From a virus (lineage: Duplodnaviria; Heunggongvirae; Uroviricota; Caudoviricetes): 64,000 bases of DNA. The position numbers and the translations under genes were made by a program. Positions within the stretch are counted from its first letter, which is position 1. Each line of letters begins with the position of its first letter. The notes beneath the pieces are model-generated. The model had not been told where the DNA came from, searched no databases, and worked only from the letters and a program-made list of their open reading frames with translations. The stretch spans positions 73,310 through 137,309 of the IMG/VR virus record IMGVR_UViG_3300032334_002267. The stretch is one strand, 5' to 3'. This document shows positions 2,160 to 50,270 of this stretch, one piece after another.

Positions 2160-2295
2160 ATAAATCTAAAAAGAAACAAATATAAAGCAGAATCCCGGAA
2201 TAGCATCGAAAATCTGGGAATTTTTTAGTGGGTATATAATAAAATAGATGAAGATCGGAATTAATTTGGTTAGCATTTATAGCACTTAATAAGAC

Positions 2296-2994
2296 ATGAC
2301 TAATATAAGGGTAGCAGGAATGATGAGATTAGCTGAAGTAGATCAGCTAAAATTGGGTAAGGAATTAATGAAGCTGTCAATTTCACTCTTAGCAGAAAAA
2401 GTATCTGCAATCTATTTTTTACAAATAGGTGAGGTTGATAGTGACGTGATAGATCATATAATATCTTTAAAAATACCATCAAAAATAACCAGGTCAACTG
2501 AGGATTACCTTAGCGGGTGGATGTTCAGAAACAACGAATCTCTTGACGCTCTCTATAAGACAATAGATGAGGATTTTGATTGGGTTTTATATCCCGATGC
2601 AGACGATCTGTTGCCTGAAAATATCTTAGAGATACTCGGAGAAGCAGACTCGTCCGGGGCTGATACCGTTAGGATGTATTTTATAGAATGCTTTGGGTCC
2701 ATAGATAAAGTAATAGAAATTAAGACAGGATATCCGATAGGTCCTCACTTTAAGGCAGTCAAACTTAGGAAAGATATAGGTTTTATCGGGTCCGATGGAT
2801 TTAATGAGGCAAGATGCGATGCAGGCTTAGTTAGATTCGAAACTAATTACTGCATGAGACATTTAAGATATGCAAATCCTAGTGGTATAGAGGAAAGAAA
2901 AAGGATGAACTATTTCCAAGAATACTTCTTGGAAGATCACAATTTGTTAGATTATATCCCAGGAAAGGAATTTAATTATTATAGGAGAGACTAA
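2296..2994 (+). CDS. hypothetical protein
   Basis: 232-aa ORF upstream of a glycosyltransferase-like gene. Confidence 0.45.
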   Translation: MTNIRVAGMMRLAEVDQLKLGKELMKLSISLLAEKVSAIYFLQIGEVDSDVIDHIISLKIPSKITRSTEDYLSGWMFRNNESLDALYKTIDEDFDWVLYPDADDLLPENILEILGEADSSGADTVRMYFIECFGSIDKVIEIKTGYPIGPHFKAVKLRKDIGFIGSDGFNEARCDAGLVRFETNYCMRHLRYANPSGIEERKRMNYFQEYFLEDHNLLDYIPGKEFNYYRRD

Positions 2995-2999
2995 AATAT

Positions 3000-3791
3000 A
3001 TGAAAAAAGTAAGCTTTGTTTGCACAACATACAGAAGATTCACATGCGTAGAGAGAATAGTTGCTCAGTATCACGCACAAACTTATTCGAATAAGGAGTT
3101 AATTATATTTAACACTGATGTTGATTTTCCATATTCATTAGGATTTGAGGACTCCTCAATTATAGTGGTTAATAATGGTACAGATTATCAAACGGGTAAA
3201 CCGTACGAGAACAGAGGACAGATATGCAGAGATGCTGTTACCCATGCGACTGGAGATTACTTTATGCTAGCAGATGATGATGACATATATCTTCCTTGGC
3301 ATATTCAGCAAGCTGTCGATGGTATACTCTCAAATGGCAAAGATGCTTGGAAACCTGCAGCTAGCTTTTTTGCAGCTCCTGGAAAGATTGAGATGTGTCA
3401 GAATACTTTAGAGGCTTCGGTTATAGTTAAGATGGAAAGAATCAGAGAGATAGGATTTAGATCTGATTTAACAGGGTACGAAGGTCTGAGCTGGTACACA
3501 AAACTTAGAGACGAGGGAAATCTAGATGAACATAATAGGGACTATGTTCCATCATACTGTTTCAATTGGAGCGATCCCCACGAGGTTGCTGGGCATAAAC
3601 AATCAGGAGACATCAACAATCCAAGCAATTTTGAAAATCATAAAAGAGCATCCACGGACTACGCTAAAAGGCCACTGGAGTTAGGGTTTAACCTAGACAA
3701 CGTCTACAAACCTTACTACAACTACATTAGAGATAACGCTCAGCAATTCCCGTTAGAGTGCATCCATAAATACGCTTCAAAATACCTCTAG
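3000..3791 (+). CDS. glycosyltransferase-like protein (GT-A DxD motif)
   Basis: FMLADDDDIYLPWHI acidic DxD-type motif. Confidence 0.4.
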   Translation: MKKVSFVCTTYRRFTCVERIVAQYHAQTYSNKELIIFNTDVDFPYSLGFEDSSIIVVNNGTDYQTGKPYENRGQICRDAVTHATGDYFMLADDDDIYLPWHIQQAVDGILSNGKDAWKPAASFFAAPGKIEMCQNTLEASVIVKMERIREIGFRSDLTGYEGLSWYTKLRDEGNLDEHNRDYVPSYCFNWSDPHEVAGHKQSGDINNPSNFENHKRASTDYAKRPLELGFNLDNVYKPYYNYIRDNAQQFPLECIHKYASKYL

Positions 3792-3812
3792 TTTTATTTT
3801 TTTATTCCGAAT

Positions 3813-4442
3813 GTGTTTTCTACATTTGGGGTTATGGTGAATAATTTCGATAACATAAGATCTCTTCTTAAATTTCCCAATGAGAACTCGTTCTACTTTC
3901 TCCAGATTTTAAAAAGGAGGAAGGATAATCCAGATCTGGGTAAGGACATGGTTCATATTGCAGATTACTACATTTATAGTCTTGAACAATTTGATGGACT
4001 AAAGCAAAGGATTATAGATCAATGTAACTCTGAGAACGCAAGAGCTTACTTTAGATTGAACGTTAGAGATGCTAGGAAGGTAGCTATGCAGGTTTTGAAG
4101 AGAACTGTGGACTATATCGTGTCAGAGAATTATCGAGCTGTAAAGAACGCATTTGCGTCTTGTACTGGTGAATATCACTCAGATCCAGATAAGACCTGGA
4201 TAGTTGATGTGGATTGGAAAGATGTCCCACAAGGAAAGGACCCCGATTTATACCTCAACAAGATCATAGCTAAAATACAAGAGCTTGTTTTTGAAACCGG
4301 AAAGGACGATACCATTTACACGTTAGTAACAAAAAACGGAATTCATGTAATAAGCAGGCCTTTTAATCTTAAAAAATTCAGAGAGGTTTATCCTCAGATT
4401 GACGTACATAAAGATAACCCAACAATTTTATATTGCCCTTAA
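3813..4442 (+). CDS. hypothetical protein
   Basis: 209-aa ORF; its stop overlaps the helicase start (TAATG). Confidence 0.45.
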   Translation: MFSTFGVMVNNFDNIRSLLKFPNENSFYFLQILKRRKDNPDLGKDMVHIADYYIYSLEQFDGLKQRIIDQCNSENARAYFRLNVRDARKVAMQVLKRTVDYIVSENYRAVKNAFASCTGEYHSDPDKTWIVDVDWKDVPQGKDPDLYLNKIIAKIQELVFETGKDDTIYTLVTKNGIHVISRPFNLKKFREVYPQIDVHKDNPTILYCP

Positions 4443-5890: not shown

Positions 5891-5945
5891 TTTTGAAACA
5901 TTCAACTCCAAATAAGTATAAAAATCGGATAAAATATTTTTTATT

Positions 5946-6188
5946 ATGATATGCCCAGCATGTAAAGAACAAGGATCAAAATCTCAAGTACAAACTGAAG
6001 GTGTTATGACAACACTTATGGGGTATGCAACGTACTACGATGAAGAAGGTAGACAACATCACCACGATGATAATTCAAGAACAACGATAGGAGAGTGTAG
6101 TAATGGCCACGTTTTTTCTTATAGATATGAGAATAGCTGTTGGTGTGGATGGGTAGGTAAAACCGAAGAATATAAGATTATAAAATAG
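5946..6188 (+). CDS. small zinc-ribbon protein
   Basis: MICPACKEQG...CWCGW. Confidence 0.4.
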   Translation: MICPACKEQGSKSQVQTEGVMTTLMGYATYYDEEGRQHHHDDNSRTTIGECSNGHVFSYRYENSCWCGWVGKTEEYKIIK

Positions 6189-6279
6189 TCAGGTGGCGCA
6201 ATGGTAGCGTGTTGGTGAGTAATCCGCTTACGGCGGAACCAAAAGACAAAGGTCACAGGTTCGAATCCTGTCCTGACTA
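6187..6279 (+). tRNA. tRNA-like gene, 93 nt, non-canonical
   Basis: Acceptor AGTCAGG/CCTGACT; D-stem GCGC/GCGT; T-arm ACAGG-TTCGAAT-CCTGT; candidate anticodon arm TCCG-CTTACGG-CGGA (UAC, Val) but the D region is about 8 nt too long. Confidence 0.45.
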
Positions 6280-6378
6280 CAAAAAGTTCTTTGAATAATA
6301 CTAAAAACAGACCCACGCTTCCCATCTAGAAGGATAATGAGAAGAATAATACGTCTTTTAAGGTCTGTTTTTAAAAAT

Positions 6379-6493
6379 AGTCAGGTGGCGGAAGGGTAGA
6401 CGCAACAAGTAAGCTAACGAAGTAATTCGTGAGGCCATTAATTCCGAGATGTAAGAGAAGTACATCGTACCCGTTCGAATCGGGTCCTGACTA
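6379..6493 (+). tRNA. tRNA-like gene, 115 nt, with about 40 nt of extra internal sequence
   Basis: Same acceptor AGTCAGG/CCTGACT; T-arm ACCCG-TTCGAAT-CGGGT; internal ACGAA-GTAA-TTCGT tetraloop hairpin. Confidence 0.4.
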
Positions 6494-6710
6494 CAATGAG
6501 TAAGAGGTACTCAGAGTCTTTAATCCAAGACTTAAACAATGGGTAGGGTATTGGACTGGACATCCTTAAACGCCAGTCTCTTTGGGTTAAAGCTAGGTAA
6601 CAGAGGCTCCAAGTAGTTTGACTAATTTTAAGAGGATAAGACCCACAGGTTTATTGAAAGAAAGAAAACCGATATATCTACTCACCAGTAATCTCAAGGT
6701 GGGGTAACAT

Positions 6711-6817
6711 AGTCAGGTGGCGGAGTGGCTTAACGCTGAGCATACATAAAGTCCTTGGGTGTGGTATGTATGATACCCATACACGAGGGCTCACAGGTTC
6801 GAATCCTGTCCTGGCTA
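6711..6817 (+). tRNA. tRNA-like gene, 107 nt, with an internal extended hairpin
   Basis: Acceptor AGTCAGG/CCTGGCT (one GU pair); T-arm ACAGG-TTCGAAT-CCTGT; internal CATACAT...ATGTATG stem. Confidence 0.4.
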
Positions 6818-6887
6818 CTGACAATAACAACTCTGGGGTCAGGGTTTTGTTGCACCGAAAGGTGGTGTTTTCAACGGTTCGAGTCCG

Positions 6888-6984
6888 AGTCAGGTGGGCG
6901 TAATGAGGGGATGGTTCCCGAATCCAGTTAAATGGTTGCTTAATCCGTCTTGAACGGTACTCGGTTCGAATCCGACCCTGACTA
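6888..6984 (+). tRNA. tRNA-like gene, 97 nt
   Basis: Acceptor AGTCAGG/CCTGACT; T-arm TCGG-TTCGAAT-CCGA. Confidence 0.4.
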
Positions 6985-7349
6985 CTAAAAATATTATCCG
7001 ATATTATTTTTTTTTATTCGAAGTATGTTCATATATTTGCAACTCAAAAGTATAAAAGTAATTAGATTCTTTATAAAGCTGGGTAACATACTTACTTATG
7101 TGATATTGTGAAAATGTGGGTTCAATTCCCATCTCAGCTGCTAAAACTAAATATTATGAATAAATCAAAGAGCATATTGTCTATCATTTTATTAGGTTTA
7201 CAAGACAAGCTTATCGAGGCCAGCGAGATTCGACGCTATGAAAATGCAATATTAAACATTAAAGCAGCTTCAATCGCAATTGCTATTAGCGTGGGTTTGT
7301 TCATAATACTGATTTAACACTTACTAAAGAACGATAAAAAAAATAAACT

Positions 7350-7634
7350 ATGAGTTACATTAGCGTTGATATCGATATAGACGATATTATTTCCGACATG
7401 GGAAGATACGACAGGAAAGAATTTTTTAAATCTATGCAAGAGTCCGGGTATATTTCCAAGAGCTGCTTCATCACGGACGATGGAGAGGTTAAAGCATCTA
7501 AATTAGAAGAGAGAAGAACATTGGATGAAAGCAATGACGATTTCAATAAAGCTCTCCAAAAATTATTCGGAAACGGATGGAAGCTAACTAAAGAACAGGA
7601 GGAATATATTATAGAACTCTCTAAAAGATTTTAA
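7350..7634 (+). CDS. hypothetical protein
   Basis: 94-aa ORF. Confidence 0.4.
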   Translation: MSYISVDIDIDDIISDMGRYDRKEFFKSMQESGYISKSCFITDDGEVKASKLEERRTLDESNDDFNKALQKLFGNGWKLTKEQEEYIIELSKRF

Positions 7635-7646
7635 AACTAAATAGAT

Positions 7647-7841
7647 ATGGAAAATAAAGAAAAACTTAAAGATGTTACTGAGAAAATTCAAGATGAATGT
7701 CATAAGTTTACTGAATCTATATTAGCTACCTCCAGTGTTAGCTATCAAGATGCTACAAATACCTTTTTGTACATGAAACTTGCAGAACTCACAATAAAAC
7801 TTGATAGATATGAAAAACATACACTTAATACCAACAGATAA
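7647..7841 (+). CDS. hypothetical small protein
   Basis: 64-aa ORF; overlaps the next ORF. Confidence 0.3.
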   Translation: MENKEKLKDVTEKIQDECHKFTESILATSSVSYQDATNTFLYMKLAELTIKLDRYEKHTLNTNR

Positions 7842-8562
7842 ACCAAGTAGGTTATTTTTAAAAGAAACTACTCTTTTATTAAATAATCAATACACACTTC
7901 AAGAAGTGTTTCCTAAAGAGAAATGTCAAAACATCTACATCACTTCCGATGAAGAAGTTAAAGAAGGAGATTGGTATTGCAGTCCAAGTGGTATAATATC
8001 TAAACATAATGGAACTGAAATGTTACCTGATGATTGGAGGAAAATCATACTAACCACAGACGAAGACTTAATCGAAGATGGTGTACAAGCTATTGATGAT
8101 GACTTTCTTGAATGGTTTGTAAAGAATCCAAATTGTGGATACGTAGACCAAAGATTAATATGGGATGAAGAAAAACTAACTTCAATTTATAAAATCATTA
8201 TTCCTAAAAGAGGTATTACTATTACTCACGTTGGTAAACCTAAACAAGAAAGTAACTTTTATGCTGCTCTAAGTTTTGACTTTTCAGAAAAATTAAAACA
8301 ATATTTTGAGGAAACACCTATGGAAAAAGTATTGGAAGATTGGGCTAAGAGTGTGGAATATGATAATGTTGGTCCAACTGTTAATGAGTTTTTAGATAAT
8401 ACTAATAAACAAAAAATTCTTGACACATCAAAAGTTACAAGAGTAGAAGTAATACAACATTCCGAACCTTATAATGGTAGGGCATACACAAATTATAATG
8501 CTAAAGATGTTGAAATACAATTACAAGATGACAATAAAACACTTAAAATATTTTTAAAATGA
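7801..8562 (+). CDS. hypothetical protein
   Basis: 253-aa ORF. Confidence 0.45.
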   Translation: MIDMKNIHLIPTDKPSRLFLKETTLLLNNQYTLQEVFPKEKCQNIYITSDEEVKEGDWYCSPSGIISKHNGTEMLPDDWRKIILTTDEDLIEDGVQAIDDDFLEWFVKNPNCGYVDQRLIWDEEKLTSIYKIIIPKRGITITHVGKPKQESNFYAALSFDFSEKLKQYFEETPMEKVLEDWAKSVEYDNVGPTVNEFLDNTNKQKILDTSKVTRVEVIQHSEPYNGRAYTNYNAKDVEIQLQDDNKTLKIFLK

Positions 8563-8765
8563 AAAACAAACAGACAGCAGTAGAATGGTTAAGACAAGAA
8601 TTATGGGAGAAATTTAAGTTTTCATCTTCAGTAAATAATATATTTGAAAAAGCCAAAGAGATGGAAAAAGAACAAATAAACAAAGCTTGCTACGATGGCT
8701 ATTATCAGGAAGAGATGATGAATACAAAAGAGTATTACGATAAAACATACAATCAAGAAGTATGA
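8559..8765 (+). CDS. hypothetical small protein
   Basis: Its ATGA start overlaps the previous stop. Confidence 0.3.
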   Translation: MKNKQTAVEWLRQELWEKFKFSSSVNNIFEKAKEMEKEQINKACYDGYYQEEMMNTKEYYDKTYNQEV

Positions 8766-8953
8766 GTGTAAAGATACTACAGAAAGAAACAACCTTCGAG
8801 GTTGTCTATAAGGAAGAATCATACCAGGTTACAGTCTTGGAGGATAGCGTAAGTCTAGGCTATACAAACTACGACGTGTATGACATGGAGGGTGAAGAAG
8901 TTGACGGAGACTTAGAAACAGAAATTGTTAACTATCTAGAAGAAAACATATGA
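8762..8953 (+). CDS. hypothetical small acidic protein
   Basis: Its ATGA start overlaps the previous stop. Confidence 0.3.
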   Translation: MSVKILQKETTFEVVYKEESYQVTVLEDSVSLGYTNYDVYDMEGEEVDGDLETEIVNYLEENI

Positions 8954-9060
8954 GTTGGAAGTATATAAGAATCATAACGTATTTAGCAATAATTTTTATC
9001 ACCATTATTTTATGGTATAATATAATTAAAATTCTTTAAACCCACCTTAAATAAAATATC

Positions 9061-9387
9061 ATGAGTAAAAACGATTTTCAGTATAGTATTTCTTCTTTTG
9101 TTTGGAACGAATTGACAAGAACATTCAGTGCGGATGCATGGAGTCTTTATGACATAGATAGTAAATATCCATATCCATTTCCTAGTGACAAGAAGCAATT
9201 TTATATTGTTAACAAAAAAACTAAGGGATTTAGAAGGTTTACTTTTGTAAAGGAAATAGAATATCTCTATGATATACAAGAAGTAGATTCTCTAGAGAAC
9301 GATGCGGATTATTCTTTTAAGTGTGTGGATTGGTTATTCGAGAGTGAGGATGGTATAAGATGTTTGGTCCAAGTGACCGTTTCTTAA
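9061..9387 (+). CDS. hypothetical protein
   Basis: 108-aa ORF followed by a terminator; preferred over the overlapping low-complexity minus-strand ORF. Confidence 0.4.
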   Translation: MSKNDFQYSISSFVWNELTRTFSADAWSLYDIDSKYPYPFPSDKKQFYIVNKKTKGFRRFTFVKEIEYLYDIQEVDSLENDADYSFKCVDWLFESEDGIRCLVQVTVS

Positions 9388-9404
9388 TCTTACAAATAAA
9401 ACTA

Positions 9405-9438
9405 AAAACCCCAGATATTATCTGGGGTTTTTTTTATT
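9405..9438. terminator. bidirectional hairpin terminator
   Basis: AAAACCCCAGAT-ATTA-TCTGGGGTTTTTTTT. Confidence 0.6.
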
Positions 9439-10372
9439 TCTTTTTCCATGGTGCAATTGCTGACGCCGGAGCGAATAGTATTTTACCGAATGATGGAGGA
9501 TTATACATAGTTGGAGAACATATAAACCAAATCACTTTTTTAATGTACTTAGGAATTCCATATTTTTTAGGATCTGGCATTTCACCGCCAGTATCTGTTA
9601 GATATATGAAAACTGATGGTTTGATATTGTTCTTTTCAACGTATTGAAAAGGAGGGATAAACCCTTTAGCATTACCACCTGTTGTTGCCCATAAAGAGAA
9701 ATCCGGCTGACCTCCTTTCTTAATGATATCAACATTATCTATATCATCACTACAGTAAATGATGTAGGTTTTATCAGCATCAAACATTTTAACCAAGTGC
9801 ATAACTTCAGTTACGAATGTTCTTGATTGTTCCTGAGATATTGAGCCAGACGTATCCACTGCTGCCACTATCGTTTTTAATGTGTCAGATCCTATATTCT
9901 TTCTTCCGTATAGATATTCTCCTCTAGCAACAAATCTTTTATTCGGAAGAACCCAATCTTGTTTATTAAATGTGCTATCGAAAAATTTCTTAAGCTCCAT
10001 TTTCCAGTTAACCAAAGGTTTCGTAGACGATAGAGTATCGATCAATCTTTTAATCTTTGAAGAAACAGAAGATGTGGCTCTACCTAAAGCTCTCATTGCT
10101 GCAGAATCCCAATCTATTTTACCTTTATGTATTCTGCTTTTCTTTTTACCGGTATACTCAGAAACCTTAGTTTTTATTTGTTTACCACCTAAATCAGAAG
10201 TTGTTTTAGCTCCGGGTGTTTCCTGTCCAACTAGAGGAATATCCTCCATCTGTATTGTTTTTTTAGATATAGCAACATTTCCACCTTTTTTACCGTCATC
10301 TGGTGATTTCTGGCCTCCAGATAAATCTTGGGCTTGAGCTATTACAGCATATTCTCCTTTTTTTACAAACAT
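9434..10372 (-). CDS. VWA-domain protein (MIDAS DxSxS), MoxR partner
   Basis: VAAVDTSGSISQEQ MIDAS-like motif; lies downstream of the MoxR ATPase. Confidence 0.7.
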   Translation of the reverse strand: MFVKKGEYAVIAQAQDLSGGQKSPDDGKKGGNVAISKKTIQMEDIPLVGQETPGAKTTSDLGGKQIKTKVSEYTGKKKSRIHKGKIDWDSAAMRALGRATSSVSSKIKRLIDTLSSTKPLVNWKMELKKFFDSTFNKQDWVLPNKRFVARGEYLYGRKNIGSDTLKTIVAAVDTSGSISQEQSRTFVTEVMHLVKMFDADKTYIIYCSDDIDNVDIIKKGGQPDFSLWATTGGNAKGFIPPFQYVEKNNIKPSVFIYLTDTGGEMPDPKKYGIPKYIKKVIWFICSPTMYNPPSFGKILFAPASAIAPWKKK

Positions 10373-10389
10373 GTTTTGAGTTTTAAATT

Positions 10390-11340
10390 TTAAACGTCTA
10401 TATCTCCGTTAGGATAAACCTTTTTGATAACAGCTTCTCTTCCGTCACTTAACCTAACCTTTTGTCCCACCCTAGGGAGTTGGGATTGTTGTTGGTTATT
10501 GCCAGGCTTATCCGAAGGTTTATTTCCTGGACTATTTCCCGGTCCATCTCCCTCTCCTTCTTCGTCTCCCTCATCACCGCTACCGTTTCCTGGTTTATCT
10601 CCTTCTTCATCACCTTCATCGCCATCGTCTCCGCTACCGTTTTGTCCGCCGTTTGGTTCATCGTCGTCTGAAACCTGAATATCCATACCCTGACCAGGTC
10701 CAGGTACTTCAGAATCCTCGTCAACAACTTCACCAAGTTCTGCACTTTTTGCCATTTTTGAAGATTTAGGCTTTCCGTCAGGGTTTAAAACTCCTTCCTC
10801 TATTAGAAGATCGTAAATATCTTCTGCTGACATGCCTTCGTATTTTTCCTCGTAAAGTCCCATTTTCTGACCCGTCTCGTCAACTGGCCATTCGAACCCC
10901 GGCTCTCCCTCAAGTATAGGATTGATAGCATAATCACATGCTATATTCCAACCTTTAGGGTCTCTAGTCCCTCTTCTTTCTTGGTGCTTACCTATACAGT
11001 GTAGAAGCTCGTGTGCAAGAACAAGTCTTAAAGCCTCCTCTTTCTGCTTAGTCACAAATTCAGGATGGAATATAATTTCTATCCCGTTTGTGCACATTGT
11101 TTTAGGATTAATTTCATCAGATCCATAAATATCTAGGTTTGCCATTAGTTCAGCATAAAATCCTTTATTGATACTAAGCCAGATTATAATCTTTCTGATT
11201 TTTCTGTTCACCTCGGTGTAATCTTCCTGAGCGTAATCTTCGGGGTTATCCACTGATTCTACCACCTTAATTCTTACGAACTCGTCAAAGTTCGTTATTG
11301 CTCTCTCGATGAGGGATTTATTTTTAAATGATCTTTCCAT
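10390..11340 (-). CDS. putative metallopeptidase-like protein (HExxH) with an acidic GDEGDEEGD low-complexity tail
   Basis: VLAHELLHCIGKH motif; resembles the N-terminal half of DUF2201-type MoxR partners. Confidence 0.55.
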   Translation of the reverse strand: MERSFKNKSLIERAITNFDEFVRIKVVESVDNPEDYAQEDYTEVNRKIRKIIIWLSINKGFYAELMANLDIYGSDEINPKTMCTNGIEIIFHPEFVTKQKEEALRLVLAHELLHCIGKHQERRGTRDPKGWNIACDYAINPILEGEPGFEWPVDETGQKMGLYEEKYEGMSAEDIYDLLIEEGVLNPDGKPKSSKMAKSAELGEVVDEDSEVPGPGQGMDIQVSDDDEPNGGQNGSGDDGDEGDEEGDKPGNGSGDEGDEEGEGDGPGNSPGNKPSDKPGNNQQQSQLPRVGQKVRLSDGREAVIKKVYPNGDIDV

Positions 11341-11361
11341 CAGTTTAGTGATTTTAGTGTT

Positions 11362-12912
11362 TTATAGTCCTTGTTCTTTCTTTCCTTGTCTAACTATCTC
11401 AACTGCCTCTTTTCTGTATTCCCATCCTGGCTCATCCTTGTAAGAAGCCTCAAATTTTCCGAATTCTGGGAATTTGTCGTAAATTCTCTTTAGAAGCCAC
11501 GTAAGAACTTCATATTGACCATATCTGCTAATGTACTTAACTATGCTCAATAGCTTCTGTGCATCACCGTCTGGTACTTTATTTATAAGTGTTTGGATAA
11601 GACCAAATAAGAATCTTTTCTCCTTCTTGAATTCAGGAATAATTCTAGCACCATCTGGATCAGTAAGCATTTCTTCGATATCAGAATCAGATGCTTTTCT
11701 TAGAATGTCTAGGAAGTCAGCAAATTTTCCAGCTGCTTGAGGTCCAACCTGATCGAAGAAGATGTTCTTAATCTTTTGAGCCGGAACGTCTCTCCAAGAG
11801 CTAAGTCCCTTGTTTCTCATATAGTCATTCAGAACTAATGCTCCATCTGCCCAAGATCTAGGAGTTGGGTAGTTTAGCACTTTCTTTTCTGTGTCCAATC
11901 TGTGGAATAACTCTCTGTTATCAGCAAGGAAGTAAATTAATTCAGGAAGGATCTTTCCTGATGAAGAAGCCCATTTAGCCCAACCCCCCGTGATTGCTCC
12001 GCTTGGATCTATTCCCAATTCAGGAACGTAATTCACAATTGTGAAACGATCAGCAAACGCAAAGTCAAATTCTGCAACTTCTGCTTCTGCAGGTCTATTA
12101 CCAGCAGCTACTATAATCCATTTTGTAGGAAGCTGATAATCTCCAATTCTACCCATTTGAACGAATTGCATTAGAGATCTTAAAACAATAGGGTTTGCTC
12201 TATTTGCTTCGTCCATGAATATAATACCACCTTTACCATTAGCTCCATTATCCCTAGGCAAAATAGAAGGAGGATTTGATCTTGTAAAACCAGCACCGTA
12301 ATCTTTTACCACCATCGTTTTCTCACCAGTTGTTTCATCCTCTACTTCAGAGAATTCCGGTTTTTTTATGTCCACTTGAACAGGAACCCCGATGAAATCT
12401 TCAGGTCCCATAAATTGTAGGTCAAGATTTAAAAGAGGAACGCCTAAAGATGTAGCGGCTTGTCCAACTATCTGGGTTTTACCGATACCAGGTGCTCCGT
12501 ATATAAATATGGGTTTTGCTCTTCCACCGGAAACTTTAGCTTCGTAAAGCTCCATTATCTCTTCCATAAGATCTTCAGCATTGATATTTCTAACGCTTTG
12601 ATCTTCTTCAGTGTATTCTAAGGGAACCACAGCTTCTTCAATCTCCTGGGATTCATTAGCTTTTGTTCCGTAGAATTCTGCTATTTGCTTATCTATAGGT
12701 CCATTTTCAGGAACAAATAGCATAGCTACAGGCTTACCTTTTTTAGGTCCACTTGGAATTGTTTTGATTAGGCCATTTTCTAAAGCCTGATAAAAGCTTT
12801 TTGTCCATCCAGTTAGTCGGTCCATTACGTTTTTCTTGAACCAGGAAAATAATCCCTCGCTAACATATGACTCGTTAACGAAGTCATCAAAGTTGTAAAT
12901 TTTCTTACCCAT
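11362..12912 (-). CDS. MoxR-family AAA+ ATPase
   Basis: Walker A GAPGIGKTQIV, Walker B IIFMDEANRA. Confidence 0.8.
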   Translation of the reverse strand: MGKKIYNFDDFVNESYVSEGLFSWFKKNVMDRLTGWTKSFYQALENGLIKTIPSGPKKGKPVAMLFVPENGPIDKQIAEFYGTKANESQEIEEAVVPLEYTEEDQSVRNINAEDLMEEIMELYEAKVSGGRAKPIFIYGAPGIGKTQIVGQAATSLGVPLLNLDLQFMGPEDFIGVPVQVDIKKPEFSEVEDETTGEKTMVVKDYGAGFTRSNPPSILPRDNGANGKGGIIFMDEANRANPIVLRSLMQFVQMGRIGDYQLPTKWIIVAAGNRPAEAEVAEFDFAFADRFTIVNYVPELGIDPSGAITGGWAKWASSSGKILPELIYFLADNRELFHRLDTEKKVLNYPTPRSWADGALVLNDYMRNKGLSSWRDVPAQKIKNIFFDQVGPQAAGKFADFLDILRKASDSDIEEMLTDPDGARIIPEFKKEKRFLFGLIQTLINKVPDGDAQKLLSIVKYISRYGQYEVLTWLLKRIYDKFPEFGKFEASYKDEPGWEYRKEAVEIVRQGKKEQGL

Positions 12913-13078
12913 TTTTTTATTTTTTGTTTGTTTTATATATCGTTGTTTTTAGAATTAAAAATTAAGATGTTTCTGAGGAAAGTCTTAATTTTATGCCCTA
13001 TATATCAAAAAAAATGGCCAATTTGTTTTTTTAACACGGGAATATTGATTAATTTTAGGATACAATGAAAAATGCGAG

Positions 13079-14218
13079 ATGAAATACGATTTAAACACTC
13101 TTAACGCCTATATCCAGAGGGGTCTTTTAGAAAGGAATCCACACCCGACATTACCGCTTGATATCTATAATTATTCAAGGGAATGTCAGTTCACGGAGTC
13201 TTGGGACGAGATCACTTTAAATATGAGAGGCACTGTTTTAGACCGGGAGGGAAATGTTATTGCTAAACCATTCCCCAAGTTTTTTAACATGGAGGAGCAT
13301 AAGCCAGAGGAAATACCTAATGAGGAATTCGAGGTTTTCGAAAAATTGGACGGGTCTCTAGGCATACTTTTCCATTATGCCGATGAGTGGCACTTAGCGA
13401 CCAGAGGATCTTTTGCATCTGAGCAGGCAATTAGGGGTAGAGAAATCCTAAAAAAATACAGATATGAGAGACTGATCCCAGGATTTACCTATCTGTTCGA
13501 GATCATCTATCCCGAAAACAGGATCGTGTGCAACTATGACTATGAGGACTTAATACTTCTTGGGGTAATTGATAACAAAGATGGTTATGAACTTAGAATC
13601 CACCATAATAGCATACATTTAGAGGGTATTAGATTCGTAAATTTATATAACAACTTGGGATTTAAGATGGTTAAGAAGTACGATGGGATAGACGATTATA
13701 AGAAGCTTAAGAAAATGATAGACGGAGAATCTGAGGGATTTGTTGTTAAATTCAAATCCGGACTTAGAATGAAGATCAAAGGCGAAGATTATGTTAGATT
13801 GCATCGACTATTGACCAATTTCTCGAATGTCGACATCTGGGAGCTTTTAAAAGAAGGAAGAAACATTGAAGAATTTCTAGAAAGAGTTCCTGACGAATTT
13901 GACAAGTGGGTTAAGAAAACAATACACAGTCTAGAATATCACCGATGTAAAGTCGAGGAAAGAGCGGAAAAGATCTATGAGTATTTTAGATATGGAAGAT
14001 ATTGGGATCGAGAGAATGAGCCTACTAAGAAAGAATTTGCTGAACATCTAGAATTTTGTAATGTTGAGCCCAGCATAAGATCCATATGTTTTGCTATGTG
14101 GGACGGAAAGAAATACGATCATATAATCTGGAAGATAGTAAAACCAAAGTATCAAAAGCCATTTTGGAATAGAGAGGAAGAAATACCAGTGGATTCAAAA
14201 TGGATTAAAAAAGATTAA
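13079..14218 (+). CDS. rnlA: RNA ligase 1 (T4 RnlA-like)
   Basis: Nucleotidyltransferase motif KLDGS; N-terminal NMRGTVLDREG...PFPKFFNMEEH closely mirrors T4 Rnl1 CRGIMFEMDGE...PMEKFFNLNEN. Confidence 0.8.
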   Translation: MKYDLNTLNAYIQRGLLERNPHPTLPLDIYNYSRECQFTESWDEITLNMRGTVLDREGNVIAKPFPKFFNMEEHKPEEIPNEEFEVFEKLDGSLGILFHYADEWHLATRGSFASEQAIRGREILKKYRYERLIPGFTYLFEIIYPENRIVCNYDYEDLILLGVIDNKDGYELRIHHNSIHLEGIRFVNLYNNLGFKMVKKYDGIDDYKKLKKMIDGESEGFVVKFKSGLRMKIKGEDYVRLHRLLTNFSNVDIWELLKEGRNIEEFLERVPDEFDKWVKKTIHSLEYHRCKVEERAEKIYEYFRYGRYWDRENEPTKKEFAEHLEFCNVEPSIRSICFAMWDGKKYDHIIWKIVKPKYQKPFWNREEEIPVDSKWIKKD

Positions 14219-14221
14219 AAA

Positions 14222-14863
14222 ATGAAAATTATATTAGAAAAAAATCAGAACATATTTTTCACCTCCGATTCGCATTTTTCGCACCAAAATATTTGTCGTG
14301 GAGTTTCAAACTGGCCTAAAGGAAGAGGTACACGGGATTTTCACTCTCTAGGTGAAATGAATGATGCTATAGTAGCAGGAATAAACTCGGTCGTTGGACC
14401 GGACGATTATTTGGTTCATATGGGAGACTGGAGCTTTGGTGGATTCGAATCTATTATCGAGTTCAGAAATAAAATAGTATGCAAAAACATTATTCTATTT
14501 TTAGGAAATCACGATCATCACATTAGAAATAATAAGGAGGGGGTACAGGGGTACTTCAAGCACGTTAGTAGCTATGATATTATAGATATCCGTAGGCCAG
14601 AGGGTAAAGAGACGGGTAAGTACCAATTCGTATGCTGTCACTTCCCAATAGCAAGTTGGGATGGAATGAATAAAGGGGTTCCTCATTTACATGGACATGT
14701 TCATCTACCGCCCAGATTAAAGATCCACGAAGGACAAGCAATGGACGTTGGAGTAGACGGAAACAATCTGGAGCCTTATAGCTTAAATGAGATATTGAAA
14801 ATAATGAAGGGTAGACCTGTTAGGCACCTGGTTCTACCTAAAGATCATCACACGGAAGAATAA
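14222..14863 (+). CDS. calcineurin-like metallophosphoesterase
   Basis: SDSHFS, GDWSFGG, GNHDHH, HLHGHVH motifs. Confidence 0.7.
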   Translation: MKIILEKNQNIFFTSDSHFSHQNICRGVSNWPKGRGTRDFHSLGEMNDAIVAGINSVVGPDDYLVHMGDWSFGGFESIIEFRNKIVCKNIILFLGNHDHHIRNNKEGVQGYFKHVSSYDIIDIRRPEGKETGKYQFVCCHFPIASWDGMNKGVPHLHGHVHLPPRLKIHEGQAMDVGVDGNNLEPYSLNEILKIMKGRPVRHLVLPKDHHTEE

Positions 14864-14885
14864 AAAAAAAATAAAAAAATAGAAA

Positions 14886-15578
14886 ATGGAACACATAGAA
14901 GGTAAAAAGTGGAAATATTGGGATCGTGCTACAAATACCTATGGATATAAAACTTTTGATCATGTTAAAGAATTGGATTCCTGCTGGGAATATGATTTTT
15001 TCTACAAGGAGAATTATTATTTTAGTTATTCACCAAAAAATTGCTGTTACCAAATGTGGGACTGCGTGATCGAACCGGGATCGGTGGTTGTTGATTTGGG
15101 TGCAAACATAGGATTATTTACACATGGAGCTTCTAGAATTGCTAAGAAAGTTATCTCTATCGAAGGTAGTCCTGAACATTATTCTTGTCTGGTTGAAAAT
15201 AACTCGGACAGAGATAACGTTTATTTTTGTAACTCCATAGTCACCGGTGAAATCCCAGCGGATACCTATATTCCATCGGGAAGAGTATGGACAGACAGAA
15301 AAAATCCAATCGAGTTTACTATTAAAAAAATAATGGAGATTTATCAGCTAGAAAAAATAGATTTTTTAAAAATAGACATCGAGGGATTTGAGTATGATGT
15401 CTTTGATTCATTAAGTCCATCCATCCTTTCTAGGATTGATAAGATCGCGTGTGAAACACATGACCCCGATGATCGAAAAAAAAATCTACAGCTTCACGGG
15501 AAGATAAGGAGCACTTTCAGTGTCATAGATTTTTGTGGTAACGTGACTGATTTTTATTATTTTACAACGCCTAAATAG
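14886..15578 (+). CDS. FkbM-type methyltransferase-like protein
   Basis: VVVDLGANIGLFT motif. Confidence 0.45.
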   Translation: MEHIEGKKWKYWDRATNTYGYKTFDHVKELDSCWEYDFFYKENYYFSYSPKNCCYQMWDCVIEPGSVVVDLGANIGLFTHGASRIAKKVISIEGSPEHYSCLVENNSDRDNVYFCNSIVTGEIPADTYIPSGRVWTDRKNPIEFTIKKIMEIYQLEKIDFLKIDIEGFEYDVFDSLSPSILSRIDKIACETHDPDDRKKNLQLHGKIRSTFSVIDFCGNVTDFYYFTTPK

Positions 15579-15736
15579 AAATAAGATGCTAGAATACAAT
15601 GTTTCAGAAAGAAGATTTTTTATTTGGAAATTGGAATTGTGGTGGATCGCTTTTGATCAACCCCAATTTTATCCAGAGGGCAGAAAACATTTAAGAGGTA
15701 ATTGGTTCTGGAGAACCAAAAGAATAAAAGAATAAT

Positions 15737-16186
15737 ATGGAAAACGTAAGAAACGAAGGATACAGCACATTAAATCCAACACTATTTCTTGTGAGAGGAA
15801 TACCTGGATCTGGTAAATCAACTTTTGCAAAGCACATCTGGAATGAGTATGCAATCTGCGAGGCTGATAAGTTTTTTCACAACAAGGAAACTGGTGAATA
15901 CAACTTTGAAGCATCAAGGTTGAAAGAAGCTCACGAATGGTGCAGAAACGAAGTTGAGACCAGAATGAAAGATCACCAAGTTAATCCCCAGTATTACCCG
16001 GAGATCGTAGTGTCAAACACGTTCACTCAGGAATGGGAGATGCAGGCTTATTTAGACCTTGCTAAGAAATATCAATATCAGGTGGTTTCTCTGATCGTTG
16101 AAAACCGTCATGGAAACAACAATGTACACAACGTTCCAGCAGAGACTCTAGAAAAAATGAGACAGAGGTTCGAGGTTAAACTTTAA
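15737..16186 (+). CDS. P-loop polynucleotide kinase-like protein (T4 Pnk kinase-domain-like)
   Basis: LVRGIPGSGKSTFAKH Walker A; 149 aa, kinase domain only. Confidence 0.6.
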   Translation: MENVRNEGYSTLNPTLFLVRGIPGSGKSTFAKHIWNEYAICEADKFFHNKETGEYNFEASRLKEAHEWCRNEVETRMKDHQVNPQYYPEIVVSNTFTQEWEMQAYLDLAKKYQYQVVSLIVENRHGNNNVHNVPAETLEKMRQRFEVKL

Positions 16187-16190
16187 ATCG

Positions 16191-16568
16191 GTGAGAATCA
16201 ACATTGAGATAGAAAAGGATCTGTATAAACACTACGGACTAACCGAGAGTGAGGTTTCGCATATTCTCGAGCTGCTATCAAAAGAGGTTGAAAGGTTGAT
16301 TGTGCATCTTTATTGCAAATACGCTTTCGAGCACAGAACAGAAAAAAATCTAAAACTCATGCTTGATTATGTTAACGAAACTCTTCTCACAGGGGTTAAT
16401 AAAGCCGAGGTGATTTTTAATAAAAAGATCAAAAGCAACCTACTTCAGGTGGGAACTATACTGGGTTCGATGGATATAAAACACCAGAAAGAAAAATACC
16501 GACTCGTGGACTATCTCTTTCACCTAACCGTGATCAAATCACAAAAAGCATTCATAATAATAAAATGA
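16191..16568 (+). CDS. hypothetical protein (GTG start)
   Basis: 125-aa ORF. Confidence 0.35.
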   Translation: MRINIEIEKDLYKHYGLTESEVSHILELLSKEVERLIVHLYCKYAFEHRTEKNLKLMLDYVNETLLTGVNKAEVIFNKKIKSNLLQVGTILGSMDIKHQKEKYRLVDYLFHLTVIKSQKAFIIIK

Positions 16569-16969
16569 CACAATATAATCTTTTTTTAGACGATTTTAGA
16601 TACCCGGCGGATTGCCAGAGGTACATGTTAGACGGAGCAATGTATACAAACTGGGAATGGACGATTGCAAGAAGCTATGACGAATTCGTAGAAATTATTA
16701 ATGCTCAAGGACTTCCTGAGTTTATTTCTTTCGATCATGATCTTGCAGACGAACACTACTCACAGGACATGTACAAGGGGATGGAGGAGTATAATAAAAA
16801 CTACGAGTCTTTTAAAGAGAAGACAGGTTTAGATTGTGCAAAATGGTTAGTTGATTATTGTACGGATAAAGGGATAAAACTTCCTAAATATAGAGTTCAT
16901 TCGATGAATCCAGCAGGAGGAAGAAACATTTCAGAATATCTACAATCATACGAAAAATTCTCAAGTTAA
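16565..16969 (+). CDS. hypothetical protein
   Basis: 134-aa ORF with a 4-nt overlap. Confidence 0.4.
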   Translation: MTQYNLFLDDFRYPADCQRYMLDGAMYTNWEWTIARSYDEFVEIINAQGLPEFISFDHDLADEHYSQDMYKGMEEYNKNYESFKEKTGLDCAKWLVDYCTDKGIKLPKYRVHSMNPAGGRNISEYLQSYEKFSS

Positions 16970-22093: not shown

Positions 22094-23188
22094 ATGGAAA
22101 GAAAATTAGCTTCGATACAGAGAATTGGAAAAATTCTTCCTATCGGGGGAGCGGACGCAATAGAAATAGTAACCGTGAATTCATGGAAGGTTGTCTCAAA
22201 GAAAGGGGAGTTTAACGAAGGAGACCTTTGTGTCTATTTCGAGATAGATTCTTTCTTACCTGTGAGGGAAGAGTTTGAATTTCTAAGAAAATCTTCGTTT
22301 AAAAAAATGGGAGATAAAGAGGGATTTAGATTAAAGACAATAAAACTCCGAGGACAAATCTCTCAGGGACTTTGTCTTCCTCTTTCAGTTTTAAACAGTA
22401 AAGAGTTTGAAGAAATGGTAGTAGGGATTTCAGAGCAGCCTTGGGGAAATCAGTTACAATTAGGTCCTTATGATGATGCAATGATTATAGAGGAGGGGAT
22501 GGATCTTACTGACTATCTTGGGATATTAAAATATGAACCTCCGATCCCAGCTTCATTAGCAGGAAAGGTAAAAGGCTATTTCCCAGGATTTATCAGAAAG
22601 ACCGACGAGGAGAGAATCCAGAACATGACTAAAGAATTCGATAGCATGCGTGATAAGCACTATTACGTAACAGAAAAACTTGACGGAAGCTCTGCAACAT
22701 ATTATTTTAATAATGGTGTGTTTGGAGTTTGTTCAAGAAATTTAGAGCTATTAGAAACAGAGGAAAATACGTTTTGGAAAGTTGCCAGAGAACTTTTCAT
22801 CGAAGAGAAATTGGGAACTCTTGAAGGTAACTACGCGATTCAGGGAGAACTCATCGGCGAAGGGATACAGGGAAATCCATATAAGATTAAAGGTCAAACG
22901 GTTAAAATATTCAACATGTTCAACATAGACACCCGGGAGTATTTGGGACTTGATGATATGATTAGAATACTAGAAAAGATAAATGTTGACGATAAGCCAT
23001 TAGAGCTCGTTCCGGTGATTTATTACGATTATAAACTTCCTTCGACCATAGAGGAGGTTTTAATTCAAGCAGAGGGTAAATCTAGGTTGAACGAACAGAC
23101 AGAAAGAGAAGGATTGGTTATTAGGAATAAAGATAAATCAATATCTTTTAAAGCCATTTCTAATAACTTTTTACTTAAAGCAGGATAA
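22094..23188 (+). CDS. second ATP-dependent RNA/DNA ligase-family protein (KxDG) with a roughly 190-aa N-terminal extension
   Basis: Motif I VTEKLDGSSATYYF. Confidence 0.6.
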   Translation: MERKLASIQRIGKILPIGGADAIEIVTVNSWKVVSKKGEFNEGDLCVYFEIDSFLPVREEFEFLRKSSFKKMGDKEGFRLKTIKLRGQISQGLCLPLSVLNSKEFEEMVVGISEQPWGNQLQLGPYDDAMIIEEGMDLTDYLGILKYEPPIPASLAGKVKGYFPGFIRKTDEERIQNMTKEFDSMRDKHYYVTEKLDGSSATYYFNNGVFGVCSRNLELLETEENTFWKVARELFIEEKLGTLEGNYAIQGELIGEGIQGNPYKIKGQTVKIFNMFNIDTREYLGLDDMIRILEKINVDDKPLELVPVIYYDYKLPSTIEEVLIQAEGKSRLNEQTEREGLVIRNKDKSISFKAISNNFLLKAG

Positions 23189-37009: not shown

Positions 37010-37687
37010 ATGAATTATCGATCAGAATTTGAAAAGTACGCCAGAAGTGAATACGGGATTTCTTCTTCCCGAATCAACTATTTCGAAAAAAAGATAGAGT
37101 CTTCAATGACTCCTTACATCCTAGAAGAAAGAGAAATGAGAGTAACCCAAATGGACATCTTTTCTCGATTAATGCGTGACCGCATTCTATGGGTAGCGGG
37201 TGAGGTTGATGATAGCATGTCAACAGTTGTCCAAGCACAGTTAATGTTTTTAGACTCTGTTGATGATAGAGATATCACCATGCACATAGACTCTCCAGGG
37301 GGTTCAGTAAAATCAGGTTTATCTATGGTTGATGTAATGGAATACATTTCTGCAGACATCAGAACAGTTAACACCGGAATGGCAGCTTCAATGGGATCAG
37401 TTTTACTTGGAGCAGGTACTAAAGGAAAGCGTAGCTCACTTAGATTCAGCAAGGTGATGTTACACCAATCAAGTGGAGGATTCAGGGGGAACATTCAAGA
37501 CGCTAAAATTGACATGAAAGAATGGGAAGAGGTTAACAAAATTCTTTTCGATCTTCTAGGAGGTTACTGTGGAAAGAAGCCAGAGCAGGTCATGAAGGAC
37601 GCAACAAGAGATTTTTGGCTGAGTGCTGATGAAGCGGTTAAATACGGAATCATCGATGAGGTGGTTCTTAAGAAGAAGAAAAAATAA
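37010..37687 (+). CDS. clpP: ATP-dependent Clp protease proteolytic subunit
   Basis: GMAASMGS (Ser), MLHQ (His), SPGGSV. Confidence 0.85.
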   Translation: MNYRSEFEKYARSEYGISSSRINYFEKKIESSMTPYILEEREMRVTQMDIFSRLMRDRILWVAGEVDDSMSTVVQAQLMFLDSVDDRDITMHIDSPGGSVKSGLSMVDVMEYISADIRTVNTGMAASMGSVLLGAGTKGKRSSLRFSKVMLHQSSGGFRGNIQDAKIDMKEWEEVNKILFDLLGGYCGKKPEQVMKDATRDFWLSADEAVKYGIIDEVVLKKKKK

Positions 37688-39300: not shown

Positions 39301-39330
39301 CCCGGGATCTTTCTAGATTCCGGGTTTTTT
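39301..39330 (+). terminator. rho-independent terminator
   Basis: CCCGGGATCT-TTCT-AGATTCCGGG-T6. Confidence 0.65.
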
Positions 39331-49931: not shown

Positions 49932-49945
49932 AATTTTTATTTTAG

Positions 49946-50047: not shown

Positions 50048-50270
50048 AAAAATGCTATCCGAACTTGATAGCAATATAACCAATTCCTATAAAACACAGT
50101 ACGAGTACTGAGATGACGATGTAGGCTTCTATACGAATCGCATCATCGGTAAACGACCCATCTTTTTGTTTTTGGAAGATTTGTTTTTGAACTTCTATCT
50201 TATCCATAATTGTAATTTAGATCACAAATGTAGGGAAAGATTTCGAAAATAAAAAATTAATTGGAGATTT

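Follow-up and report, generated by a model that had tools for sequence, protein, structure and literature searches.

Species 1 of bacteriophage T4 (gene rnaC) is a non-decoding small RNA which, with species 2 (rnaD), is encoded head to tail and in the same orientation as the phage tRNA genes. Its 139 nt combine a canonical T arm (CCGGGUUCGAAUCCCGG), closed by an acceptor-like terminal stem, with an enlarged and strongly structured interior (folding z -4.6). The rnaC record gives the function only as 'small, stable RNA' and, to our knowledge, none has been found since the 1970s. Species 1 is the nearest known thing to the RNAs described here, which are encoded by an array of four tRNA-like elements (E1 to E4) and a distant fifth copy (E5) in a 64,000-nt stretch of a tailed virus of the Caudoviricetes (IMG/VR record IMGVR_UViG_3300032334_002267, positions 73,310 to 137,309), referred to throughout as the window. 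The likeness appears to be architectural and not one of homology. Homology was rejected on the score of rnaC against the family covariance model R1 (introduced below), which at 20.7 bits was no better than that of ordinary T4 tRNAs (17-26 bits). In addition, the T4 RNAs are single genes and rnaC is without a Leu-type D arm, whereas the elements of the window belong to a multi-copy family with one common acceptor stem and a D arm of that type.

Four other systems invite comparison. Bacterial type II tRNA-Leu shares with the family a D arm identical or near-identical to GUGGCGGAAUUGGUAGACGC, the A15-U48 pair, G18G19, the T loop and A73. It differs in its 5-bp anticodon stem, 7-nt loop and Leu anticodon, and in having about 33 nt where the family carries an insert (17-140 nt, median 58, in the 109 elements with a canonical D arm); the family, for its part, has one acceptor-stem sequence across all copies. 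YrlA-type bacterial Y RNAs have examples in phages and next to RNA-repair genes. In YrlA the 5′ and 3′ ends form a Ro-binding stem and the tRNA-like part is internal, whereas the ends of the family elements form the acceptor stem. Both are modular, with a tRNA-like domain joined to an unrelated second module (Chen et al. 2014, PMC4201824). No Ro60/TROVE protein was found among the approximately 70 open reading frames (ORFs) of the window scanned with Pfam. Transfer-messenger RNA (tmRNA) likewise has an acceptor stem and T arm without an anticodon, and its partner SmpB is encoded in the window. A miniature tmRNA acting with this SmpB was nevertheless rejected: the 3-70 pair is U-A (U.G in E3) and not the G3.U70 of alanine acceptors, the D arm is full, lengths of 93-115 nt are too short for a tag reading frame and pseudoknots, and no tmRNA was found by ARAGORN or Rfam in the 64-kb window. 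Finally, the tRNA-like RNAs of gammaherpesvirus 68 and the tRNA punctuation of mitochondria are tRNA-shaped marks at which RNase P and RNase Z release neighbouring RNAs, and engineered tRNA scaffolds are stabilizing carriers with an RNA inserted at the anticodon position. These systems offer analogy only, coming from other domains of life and other polymerases and having unrelated sequences; the phage family would combine both roles, cutting mark and carrier, naturally. An Rfam scan of the window at gathering thresholds and an E-value scan of positions 5900-7400 returned tRNA only, with no match to tmRNA, Y RNA, intron, ribozyme or riboswitch families.

A family of tRNA-like RNA genes lacking an anticodon arm

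Elements E1 to E4 begin with the same sequence, AGTCAGGTGG, and share the T loop TTCGAAT, which is closed by the stems ACAGG/CCTGT (E1 and E3), ACCCG/CGGGT (E2) or CTCGG/CCGAC (E4). The T arm is followed by CCTGACT in E1, E2 and E4 and by CCTGGCT in E3, where a U3.G70 pair results, and then by A-C. An earlier sequence-only reading had described four elements with these starts, T arms and ends, and all were confirmed, as were the hairpin at 6417-6430, the CATACAT/ATGTATG complementarity and the 11-bp inverted repeat at 6303-6313 and 6362-6372 that it had also reported. The public metagenome assembly, in which this DNA belongs to a 132-kb scaffold (ENA ERZ28593537 scaffold_23), has no gene call across 6189-7113; runs ERR2848520 and ERR2848577 are metagenomes from that lake study.

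Membership was assessed with R1, a covariance model built from 59 elements of other viral contigs and containing no window sequence. Run over the 64 kb with filters off, R1 returned exactly five matches (40.1-66.4 bits, E 8e-14 to 2e-7) and the next best scored 12 bits (Table 1). Because the five were recovered by a model free of window sequence, chance is excluded and the repeats are genuine. All five have a 7-bp acceptor stem, a discriminator base and a UUCRANY T loop. The acceptor stem of E5, GGUCAGG/CCUGACC, carries a compensatory 1-72 change, and E5 is also the one copy of the five with G73 in place of A73.

Standard tRNA detection handled these elements poorly. ARAGORN reported E1 alone, as an improbable 'tRNA-Asp(atc)'. 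The Rfam comparison that had been proposed for the array gave a divided answer: E1 (52.5 bits) and E3 (33.9 bits) reached the tRNA threshold with blocks of 32 and 43 nt, respectively, left unaligned at the anticodon-arm site, E5 also passed, again with an unaligned block in this range at that site, and E2 and E4 were missed. About half of all family elements pass this threshold.

The pattern GGTTCGAATCCNNNCCTGACT was found in at least 120 IMG/VR contigs, with up to seven matches per locus among those listed, and an independent 5′ pattern, AGTCAGGTGGCGGAAT, likewise in at least 120; the abundance and diversity of the family given here are lower bounds. The 178 elements extracted (the first set plus the window) measure 60-190 nt, with a median of 102. 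Of these, 156 have the acceptor stem AGUCAGG/CCUGACU, and in 162 the element is followed by A-C. As the first sample had been chosen on the 3′ half, a 5′-anchored sample, unbiased for that half, serves as a correction; there, 86% of elements retain CCUGACU, 76% have ACAGG/CCUGU as T stem and 87% have A73. A blastn search of GenBank phages with the region and the consensus of the constant shell (hereafter the chassis) yielded no record with both halves. In a search of 185,579 species genomes the chassis pattern hit family copies on contigs of metagenome-assembled genomes (MAGs) only, approximately half of them binned to Bacteroidota, with zero copies in bacterial isolate genomes; the pattern also matches unrelated, genuine tRNA-Ser(CGA) genes in Algimonas and Litorimonas. 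The MAG binning and one weak domain match hint at a Bacteroidota host. The nearest relatives of the window are jumbo-phage contigs of up to 373 kb, and the window is recognizable as bacteriophage DNA by its genes for peptidoglycan hydrolases, ECF sigma factor, SmpB and ClpP. Literature searches found no description of the AGUCAGG family, which is apparently undescribed and is a new variety of tRNA-like non-coding RNA within a known class.

The capacity of the elements to decode was examined from several sides. Neither a usable anticodon in a 5-bp stem with a 7-nt loop nor a canonical loop with a Leu anticodon (NAG or YAA) was found by Rfam, by ARAGORN measured against shuffled sequences or in minimum free energy (MFE) folds. 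ARAGORN in default mode called 35 of 175 real elements as tRNAs, against 27-37 of 175 when the insert was shuffled. In intron mode the corresponding counts were 118 and 102-109, and the implied anticodons were rich in A34 in the real and the shuffled sets alike. The other tRNAs of the same loci (n = 238, intron mode) have a normal phage anticodon spectrum, including Met-CAU (28), Leu-UAA (19), Glu-UUC (14) and Arg-UCU (14). The MFE folds of E1, E2 and E3 contain other structures where the 7-nt anticodon loop is expected, and the shortest members have, by inspection, a hairpin with a loop of 3-5 nt in place of the anticodon arm. Isotype-specific acceptor stems, a further property of decoding tRNAs, are lacking, with one stem serving nearly the whole family. 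Because an unrelated structured insert occupies the site of the anticodon arm, the elements are very likely non-decoding tRNA-like RNA genes. Of the two options offered by the sequence-only reading, a tRNA-mimic non-coding RNA family is thus borne out by the many members found, which keep the tRNA shell constant and lack an anticodon arm, while tRNAs with unusual insertions or intron-like elements find no support in intron-mode calls close to the shuffled level or in Rfam.

The canonical isotype closest to the chassis in the same phages is tRNA-Leu, above all in the D-arm half, and some phage tRNA-Leu genes have acceptor stems such as ACUCAGG. Conservation among 175 elements is 95% for U8, 83% for U48, 87% for the complete UUCGAAU loop and 92% (161 of 175) for A73; A14A15 with G18G19 occurs in 129 and the full Leu-type D-arm pattern in 75. 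The Levitt pair is A15-U48 in 112 elements, G15-C48 in six (E3 included) and A-C or G-U in six, and this covariation is significant by Fisher's test (p = 7e-7) when, as in all covariation statistics given here, relatedness is ignored. Acceptor and T-stem cells are 99.9% paired across 59 members, with double changes at four pairs, so the covariation across related phages that had been suggested as a check is present in the stems and in the tertiary pair alike. Covariation of a non-helical pair is hard to explain other than by selection on an L-shaped RNA, and the shell appears to be a tRNA-Leu body with a tRNA-like tertiary core. The window copies follow the Leu-type pattern to different degrees: it is complete in E2, departed from in part by E1 (C48) and E3 (G15-C48), and altered in E4, which has a rebuilt D domain and an A at position 48, and in E5 by its discriminator.

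Table 1. Positions of the elements, interleaved RNAs and other listed features; window coordinates unless a contig label is given.
Feature	Position	Strand	Description	Scores
E1	6187-6279	+	93 nt including discriminator	R1 66.4 bits, E 8e-14
E2	6379-6493	+	115 nt including discriminator	R1 59.0 bits
E3	6711-6817	+	107 nt including discriminator	R1 59.5 bits
E4	6888-6984	+	97 nt including discriminator; distinct conserved subclass	R1 40.1 bits, E 2e-7
E5	50047-49946	-	102 nt	R1 57.5 bits; Rfam tRNA 42.8 bits
Separate tRNA-shaped element	7077-7140	+	64 nt	Rfam tRNA 29.3 bits (threshold 29); R1 12 bits
sp1	6280-6378	+	Between E1 and E2; conserved small RNA	
sp2	6494-6710	+	Between E2 and E3; conserved structured RNA of ~216 nt	
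sp3	6818-6887	+	Between E3 and E4; conserved RNA of 70 nt	
sp2 homologue, L056	1985-2208	-		
sp2 homologue, L011	628-839	-		
sp2 homologue, L060	5723-5933	-		
sp2 homologue, L017	5207-5429	+		
sp2 homologue, L012	about 10417-10630	-		
sp2 homologue, L139	from 3081			
sp2 homologue, L084	from 12118			
Unusual cargo genes, listed jointly	53329-54804, 39313-39990, 41676-42500	-		

Inserts, interleaved RNAs and a model of the array

In the 109 elements with a canonical D arm, the inserts form one or two outer helices; in 40 of them the last helix leaves 2 nt free ahead of the T stem, as a type II variable arm does. Over 159 inserts, folding energies relative to shuffles gave a mean z of -0.65, with 38% below -1. 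In nine related loci an Rfam scan found tmRNA, a group I intron and freshwater-1 nearby and zero matches inside inserts.

In the window each insert has its own structure. In E1 the acceptor strands occupy 6187-6193 and 6272-6278, the D arm 6196-6210, the T arm 6255-6271 and A73 position 6279. The analogue of its anticodon arm is UUGGU (6212-6216) paired with ACCAA (6238-6242); in place of a 7-nt loop, the MFE fold has a 6-nt bulge (6217-6222) and a UCCGC/GCGGA hairpin with a pentaloop (6223-6237), and a short variable hairpin lies inside 6243-6254. The E3 insert is predicted to fold into a long irregular hairpin at about 6750-6791 (MFE -41.8 kcal/mol, z -2.7), of which the apical ATGTATG (6766-6772) could instead pair with CATACAT (6741-6747). 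Two hairpins occur in the E5 insert: one (GGGGUUCGACCCC) is like a second T arm, and the other is CCCA-GUAG-UGGG. The structures of these three inserts are single-sequence folds, and no orthologues of them were found in the sampled loci. E5 sits among minus-strand genes and is thus co-oriented with local transcription. Its flanks (49900-50230) contain two small ORFs that both start with ATGGATAAGATAGA (MDKIE and MDKID), which suggests a local duplication.

Conservation is greater for E2 and E4. E2 has a full Leu-type D arm, a T arm at 6469-6485 and an insert in which a GNRA hairpin (ACGAA-GTAA-TTCGT, 6417-6430) is followed by a hairpin that resembles a variable arm (GAUGUA/UACAUC); the insert also contains the conserved block CCAUUAAUUCCGA. 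In its orthologue (contig L020, 4244-4360) a 32-nt block is conserved while the hairpin ACGAA/UUCGU is replaced by GGAAUU/AAUUCC and the T stem ACCCG/CGGGU by ACAGG/CCUGU. The E4 subclass occurs in six other contigs (L093, L024, L070, L107, L044 and L144), which conserve the segments GCGUAAUGAG, GAAUCC and GGUUGC. Two hairpins of E4 covary in the RNAalifold alignment; a small hairpin lies at 6946-6958 and the T arm at 6960-6976. By-eye reading of the alignment points to a D-stem-like GCG/UGC around a two-hairpin junction, where one hairpin would have a tandem G.A extension and a UGG loop; the second junction hairpin is variable (CC..GG). Between the window and L093, the 193 nt that span sp3, E4 and the 3′ part of the preceding element are 98.4% identical, compared with 87-89% for coding DNA nearby. 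Because of the compensatory changes in the E2 orthologue and an sp3-E4 identity above that of coding DNA, the inserts of E2 and E4 appear to be under selection.

The intervals between the elements had been taken as mere spacers in the sequence-only reading, a view that the comparison overturned, since sp1, sp2 and sp3 are all conserved RNAs. In sp1 the 11-bp inverted repeat forms a long-range stem around a highly conserved interior of 48 nt. Its homologue (L083, 11065-11139) is 79% identical, with two compensatory stem pairs and an almost invariant interior, and sits between a canonical tRNA-Leu and a family element. sp3 contains a GNRA hairpin, CACC-GAAA-GGUG, and a T-loop-like GGUUCGAGUCC, and its homologue (L093, 1043-1112, minus strand) lies between two family elements. 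Thus sp1 and sp3 are each flanked by tRNA-shaped genes in the window and in one other locus.

The evidence is most extensive for sp2, which has homologues of about 210-260 nt and 68-96% identity in seven loci and no Rfam match in the E-value scan. It has a conserved 5′ hairpin, UGAGUA/UACUCA (AAUGAGUAAGAGAUACUCA), and a 3′ hairpin, CUCACC/GGUGGG, and the consensus fold from RNAalifold contains 27 pairs, nine of them with compensatory changes. In every case sp2 starts 2-3 nt past the discriminator of a tRNA or family element, and in all seven cases with a retrieved 3′ end it stops at the first base of the next tRNA-shaped gene. A tRNA-shaped flank was therefore present upstream in 8/8 and downstream in 7/7, with gaps of 0-3 nt.

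Orientation and processing signals were equally regular. In family-bearing loci, 199/199 canonical tRNAs are on the same strand as the family copies, and all copies share one strand in 35 of the 36 multi-copy loci; the exception is the window itself, with E5 43 kb away. The base at -1 is U in 82% of elements, and U before the cleavage site is preferred by bacterial RNase P. The canonical tRNAs of these phages share the N73-C-A/U trailer.

Two features at the borders of the array are recorded here. Upstream, the stop codon TAG (6186-6188) of the ORF 5946-6188 overlaps the first two bases of E1. This ORF encodes a Cys/His-rich, zinc-ribbon-like protein of 80 amino acids (CPAC ... CWC), and an RNase P cut between 6186 and 6187 would strip the stop codon from its mRNA. 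Downstream, the separate element at 7077-7140 combines a T arm with an acceptor stem of 7 bp (AGCUGGG/CUCAGCU), a D-like hairpin of 4 bp whose loop lacks GG and, at the anticodon-arm site, a 12-nt linker; it overlaps the start of a called 67-amino-acid gene and, by its R1 score, is outside the AGUCAGG family.

The explanation preferred here, at a probability of about 0.6, is that these are RNAs made of a chassis and an insert, with processing punctuation: derived from tRNA-Leu, non-decoding and carrying lineage-specific structured inserts. The elements are probably stable small RNAs matured by tRNA-processing enzymes. The chassis would consist of the AGUCAGG acceptor, U8, a Leu-type D arm with G18G19, the 15-48 Levitt pair, the ACAGG/CCUGU stem, the UUCGAAU loop and, usually, A73; the insert would replace the anticodon arm and often the variable arm too. 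Positions 6187-7140 of the plus strand would be transcribed as a single precursor that includes sp1, sp2 and sp3. Host RNase P would cut between U(-1) and A1 of each tRNA-shaped unit, the same cut creating the 3′ end of the upstream RNA, and 3′ processing past A73/C74 would create the 5′ end of the downstream RNA. Completion of the CCA would follow, being needed because C74 alone is encoded. A single precursor cut by tRNA-processing enzymes is the simplest reading because of the head-to-tail packing, the co-orientation, U(-1) and the shared trailer. Thanks to the L-shaped chassis the RNA would have precise ends, resist nucleases and offer tRNA-binding proteins a handle, and the insert would be the specific functional module.

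Several observations weigh against this explanation. Processing is deduced from anatomy only, and canonical tRNAs serve as punctuation equally well, for example beside sp2 in L056 and L084. Punctuation alone also fails to account for the uniformity of the chassis in sequence, beyond its fold: the chassis is nearly the same in phages that have few proteins in common, mostly at 30-70% identity, which implies either a sequence-reading partner (searched for and not found) or frequent exchange of cassettes. No protein family was consistently linked to the elements among 2,022 ORFs from 121 loci, the best occurring in 14 of the 121; the top clusters were DUF932, terminase, homing endonuclease, phosphoesterase and proteins of no known family. 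As to the inserts, 134 of 178 had no relative in the sample when compared all against all, and an E3-like unit of L011 has an insert that cannot be aligned although its surroundings are conserved; for these reasons some inserts may be drifting and not functional. k-mer enrichment found no motif common to all inserts, only the subclass motifs GGUUGC, GAAUCC and GUGGUA. No antisense match of at least 15 nt to any insert was found in about 1.3 Mb of phage sequence, orthologues and T-loop look-alikes aside.

Alternative functions of the chassis and inserts

A role as leucine acceptor would be compatible with the chassis-and-insert model but is unlikely to be the function of the family. Host leucyl-tRNA synthetase (LeuRS), which does not read the anticodon, would charge the elements, and the resulting non-decoding mimic of Leu-tRNA could act as a sponge for LeuRS or EF-Tu, as a leucine donor for a non-ribosomal transferase, or by SmpB-assisted entry into stalled ribosomes. 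The E. coli enzyme requires A73, A15-U48, G18G19, A20a and contacts of the D loop with the T loop, charging hinging on A73 and these tertiary contacts, and G73 is an antideterminant (PMC9976931). The family keeps the tRNA-Leu D arm and, among these identity elements, A73, A15-U48, G18G19 and an intact T loop; it is plausible from these features that many members could be leucylated, and the SmpB gene of the window lies beside that for ClpP. Against this, charging is a proposal from sequence features, E5 carries the antideterminant, fewer than half of the elements have the full Leu-type D-arm pattern, and LeuRS does not demand strict conservation of the acceptor-stem sequence. SmpB is encoded near an element in only one other locus (L043), and an ordinary tmRNA on the related contig L010 is a candidate for its conventional partner. 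Leucylation would also leave the conservation of inserts in orthologues unexplained.

A bolder proposal, which we hold to be rather doubtful, is that the family is a phage library of adaptor or guide RNAs. The chassis would be the universal handle and the hypervariable insert the specificity module, so that each RNA would recruit one tRNA-binding activity to a target of its own, whether RNA or protein. Candidates for that activity would be RNase P or RNase Z, the CCA-adding enzyme, SmpB together with the ribosome or, by way of a leucyl end, LeuRS or EF-Tu. More than 130 unrelated inserts came from the approximately 110 loci sampled.

Somewhat less probable still is that the elements are decoys for, or competitive inhibitors of, host anti-phage enzymes that read the tRNA body or 3′ end, such as tRNA nucleases and nucleotidyltransferase toxins; lacking an anticodon loop, they would be harmless to translation. 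Several copies per genome and a constant acceptor, T-arm and D-arm body fit such a role, as do the tRNA-repair genes of the window and of some related loci (Rnl1-like ligase, phosphoesterase, P-loop kinase and cREC, a cyclic-phosphate-processing receiver domain), which suggest hosts that attack tRNA. Jumbo phages counter tRNA attack with tRNAs and RNA repair (PMC7824862). A decoy, however, would have no need of a specific insert, yet both window inserts with orthologues are conserved, with compensatory changes. The anticodon loop, which most known anticodon nucleases read, is missing here, and the adjacency to repair genes is not conserved: a ligase, phosphoesterase or kinase is near elements in approximately 6 of 120 loci, about the chance rate.

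True tRNAs with intron inserts are most improbable; on this reading the introns would be excised, for example by an endonuclease acting with RNA ligases of the phage, and decoders with a common body would result. The window does encode two RNA ligases and a polynucleotide-kinase-like protein, some members are merely 69-77 nt long, and the intron mode of ARAGORN forces a tRNA reading on most elements. Such calls, though, were equally frequent with shuffled inserts and the implied anticodons random, and isotype-specific charging would fail with a common acceptor stem. In the shortest members a small hairpin is present and an anticodon arm is not, no splicing endonuclease was found among the ORFs scanned, and Rfam found no group I or other intron family in 5900-7400, where no separate search for bulge-helix-bulge motifs was made.

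Equally hard to sustain are DNA-level elements, in which the acceptor strands would be the 7-bp terminal inverted repeats of a miniature mobile element or a recombination site, or decaying tRNA-Leu pseudogenes: constant ends around variable interiors, a 7.2-kb accessory segment missing from close relatives, homing-endonuclease genes that are common nearby (in ten loci) and mosaic similarity (for example, L139 with 95-96% identity over only 72-94 nt) can be cited in favour, but the complete co-orientation with tRNA genes, the conserved U(-1), compensatory stem changes and 15-48 covariation that no DNA site would impose, and inspected flanks in which no target-site duplications were seen speak against the former, and a near-invariant body across divergent phages is not expected of the latter.

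Genomic surroundings and significance of the family

In the closest relatives of the window (L158, L159 and L162) the Dda-like helicase is 88-74% identical and the Rnl1-like ligase follows it after approximately 1-1.4 kb. In the window these two genes are separated by 7.2 kb (5891-13078) that is absent from all three and carries, besides the RNA island and the ORF for the zinc-ribbon-like protein, small ORFs and an operon of MoxR/VWA type, which comprises a MoxR AAA ATPase and two DUF2201 (VWA / metallopeptidase) genes on the minus strand at 9434-12912. In the closest relatives R1 detected no copy of the family up to 6 kb from the helicase; across all twelve related loci it gave two weaker matches, both in L167. 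Because the segment with the array is missing from the closest relatives, the array occupies an accessory insertion and is next to the repair cassette incidentally. The emphasis placed on that cassette by the sequence-only reading was therefore misleading, as the helicase and ligase are kept where the array is missing, and linkage to RNA repair was rejected on this absence and on the chance-level count given above.

The repair genes themselves (13079-16969 and 22094-23188) encode the Rnl1-like ligase, a metallophosphoesterase, an FkbM-type methyltransferase, a P-loop (AAA_33) kinase and cREC; 6 kb further along is another RNA ligase, which has a PHA02142 OB fold. ClpP (37010-37687), SmpB (37694-38116, Pfam E 1e-48) and an M28 peptidase (38119-38874) are encoded in a row. 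Other cargo includes a tyrosinase-domain protein, a NUMOD3 homing-endonuclease-like gene and an RNase_T-family (DEDD) exonuclease (Table 1). The G+C content rises from approximately 36% to 44-52% over 58000-64000, which could be a compositionally foreign segment or be of different origin.

Two related contigs deserve mention. In L017, positions 2200-4400 form a gene-free RNA island of more than 2 kb with canonical tRNAs, family elements, several uncalled units containing T arms and a near-threshold Rfam match to freshwater-1 (70.1 bits versus 72). In L010, a tmRNA (7609-8193, minus strand; Rfam 49.2 bits) abuts or overlaps a group I intron (97.8 bits) near three family elements and may be an intron-interrupted phage tmRNA.

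For the annotation of large uncultivated phages, the consequence is that tRNA counts and arguments from codon usage may be inflated by non-decoding RNAs, since tools call family elements as tRNAs; in the loci studied they made up 41 of 263 ARAGORN calls by default and 111 of 349 with introns. For phage biology, the family shows phages to have reused the tRNA-Leu body repeatedly as a carrier of diverse structured inserts, and it supplies many natural examples of the kind of RNA represented by T4 species 1. The islands, in which tRNAs, tRNA-like RNAs and other conserved small RNAs lie head to tail, point to tRNA-processing enzymes maturing a much larger phage non-coding transcriptome. The chassis would be a ready-made and evolution-tested scaffold for RNA expression in bacteria and, if the adaptor proposal were true, the family would be nature's equivalent of engineered tRNA scaffolds, serving to target as well as to stabilize.

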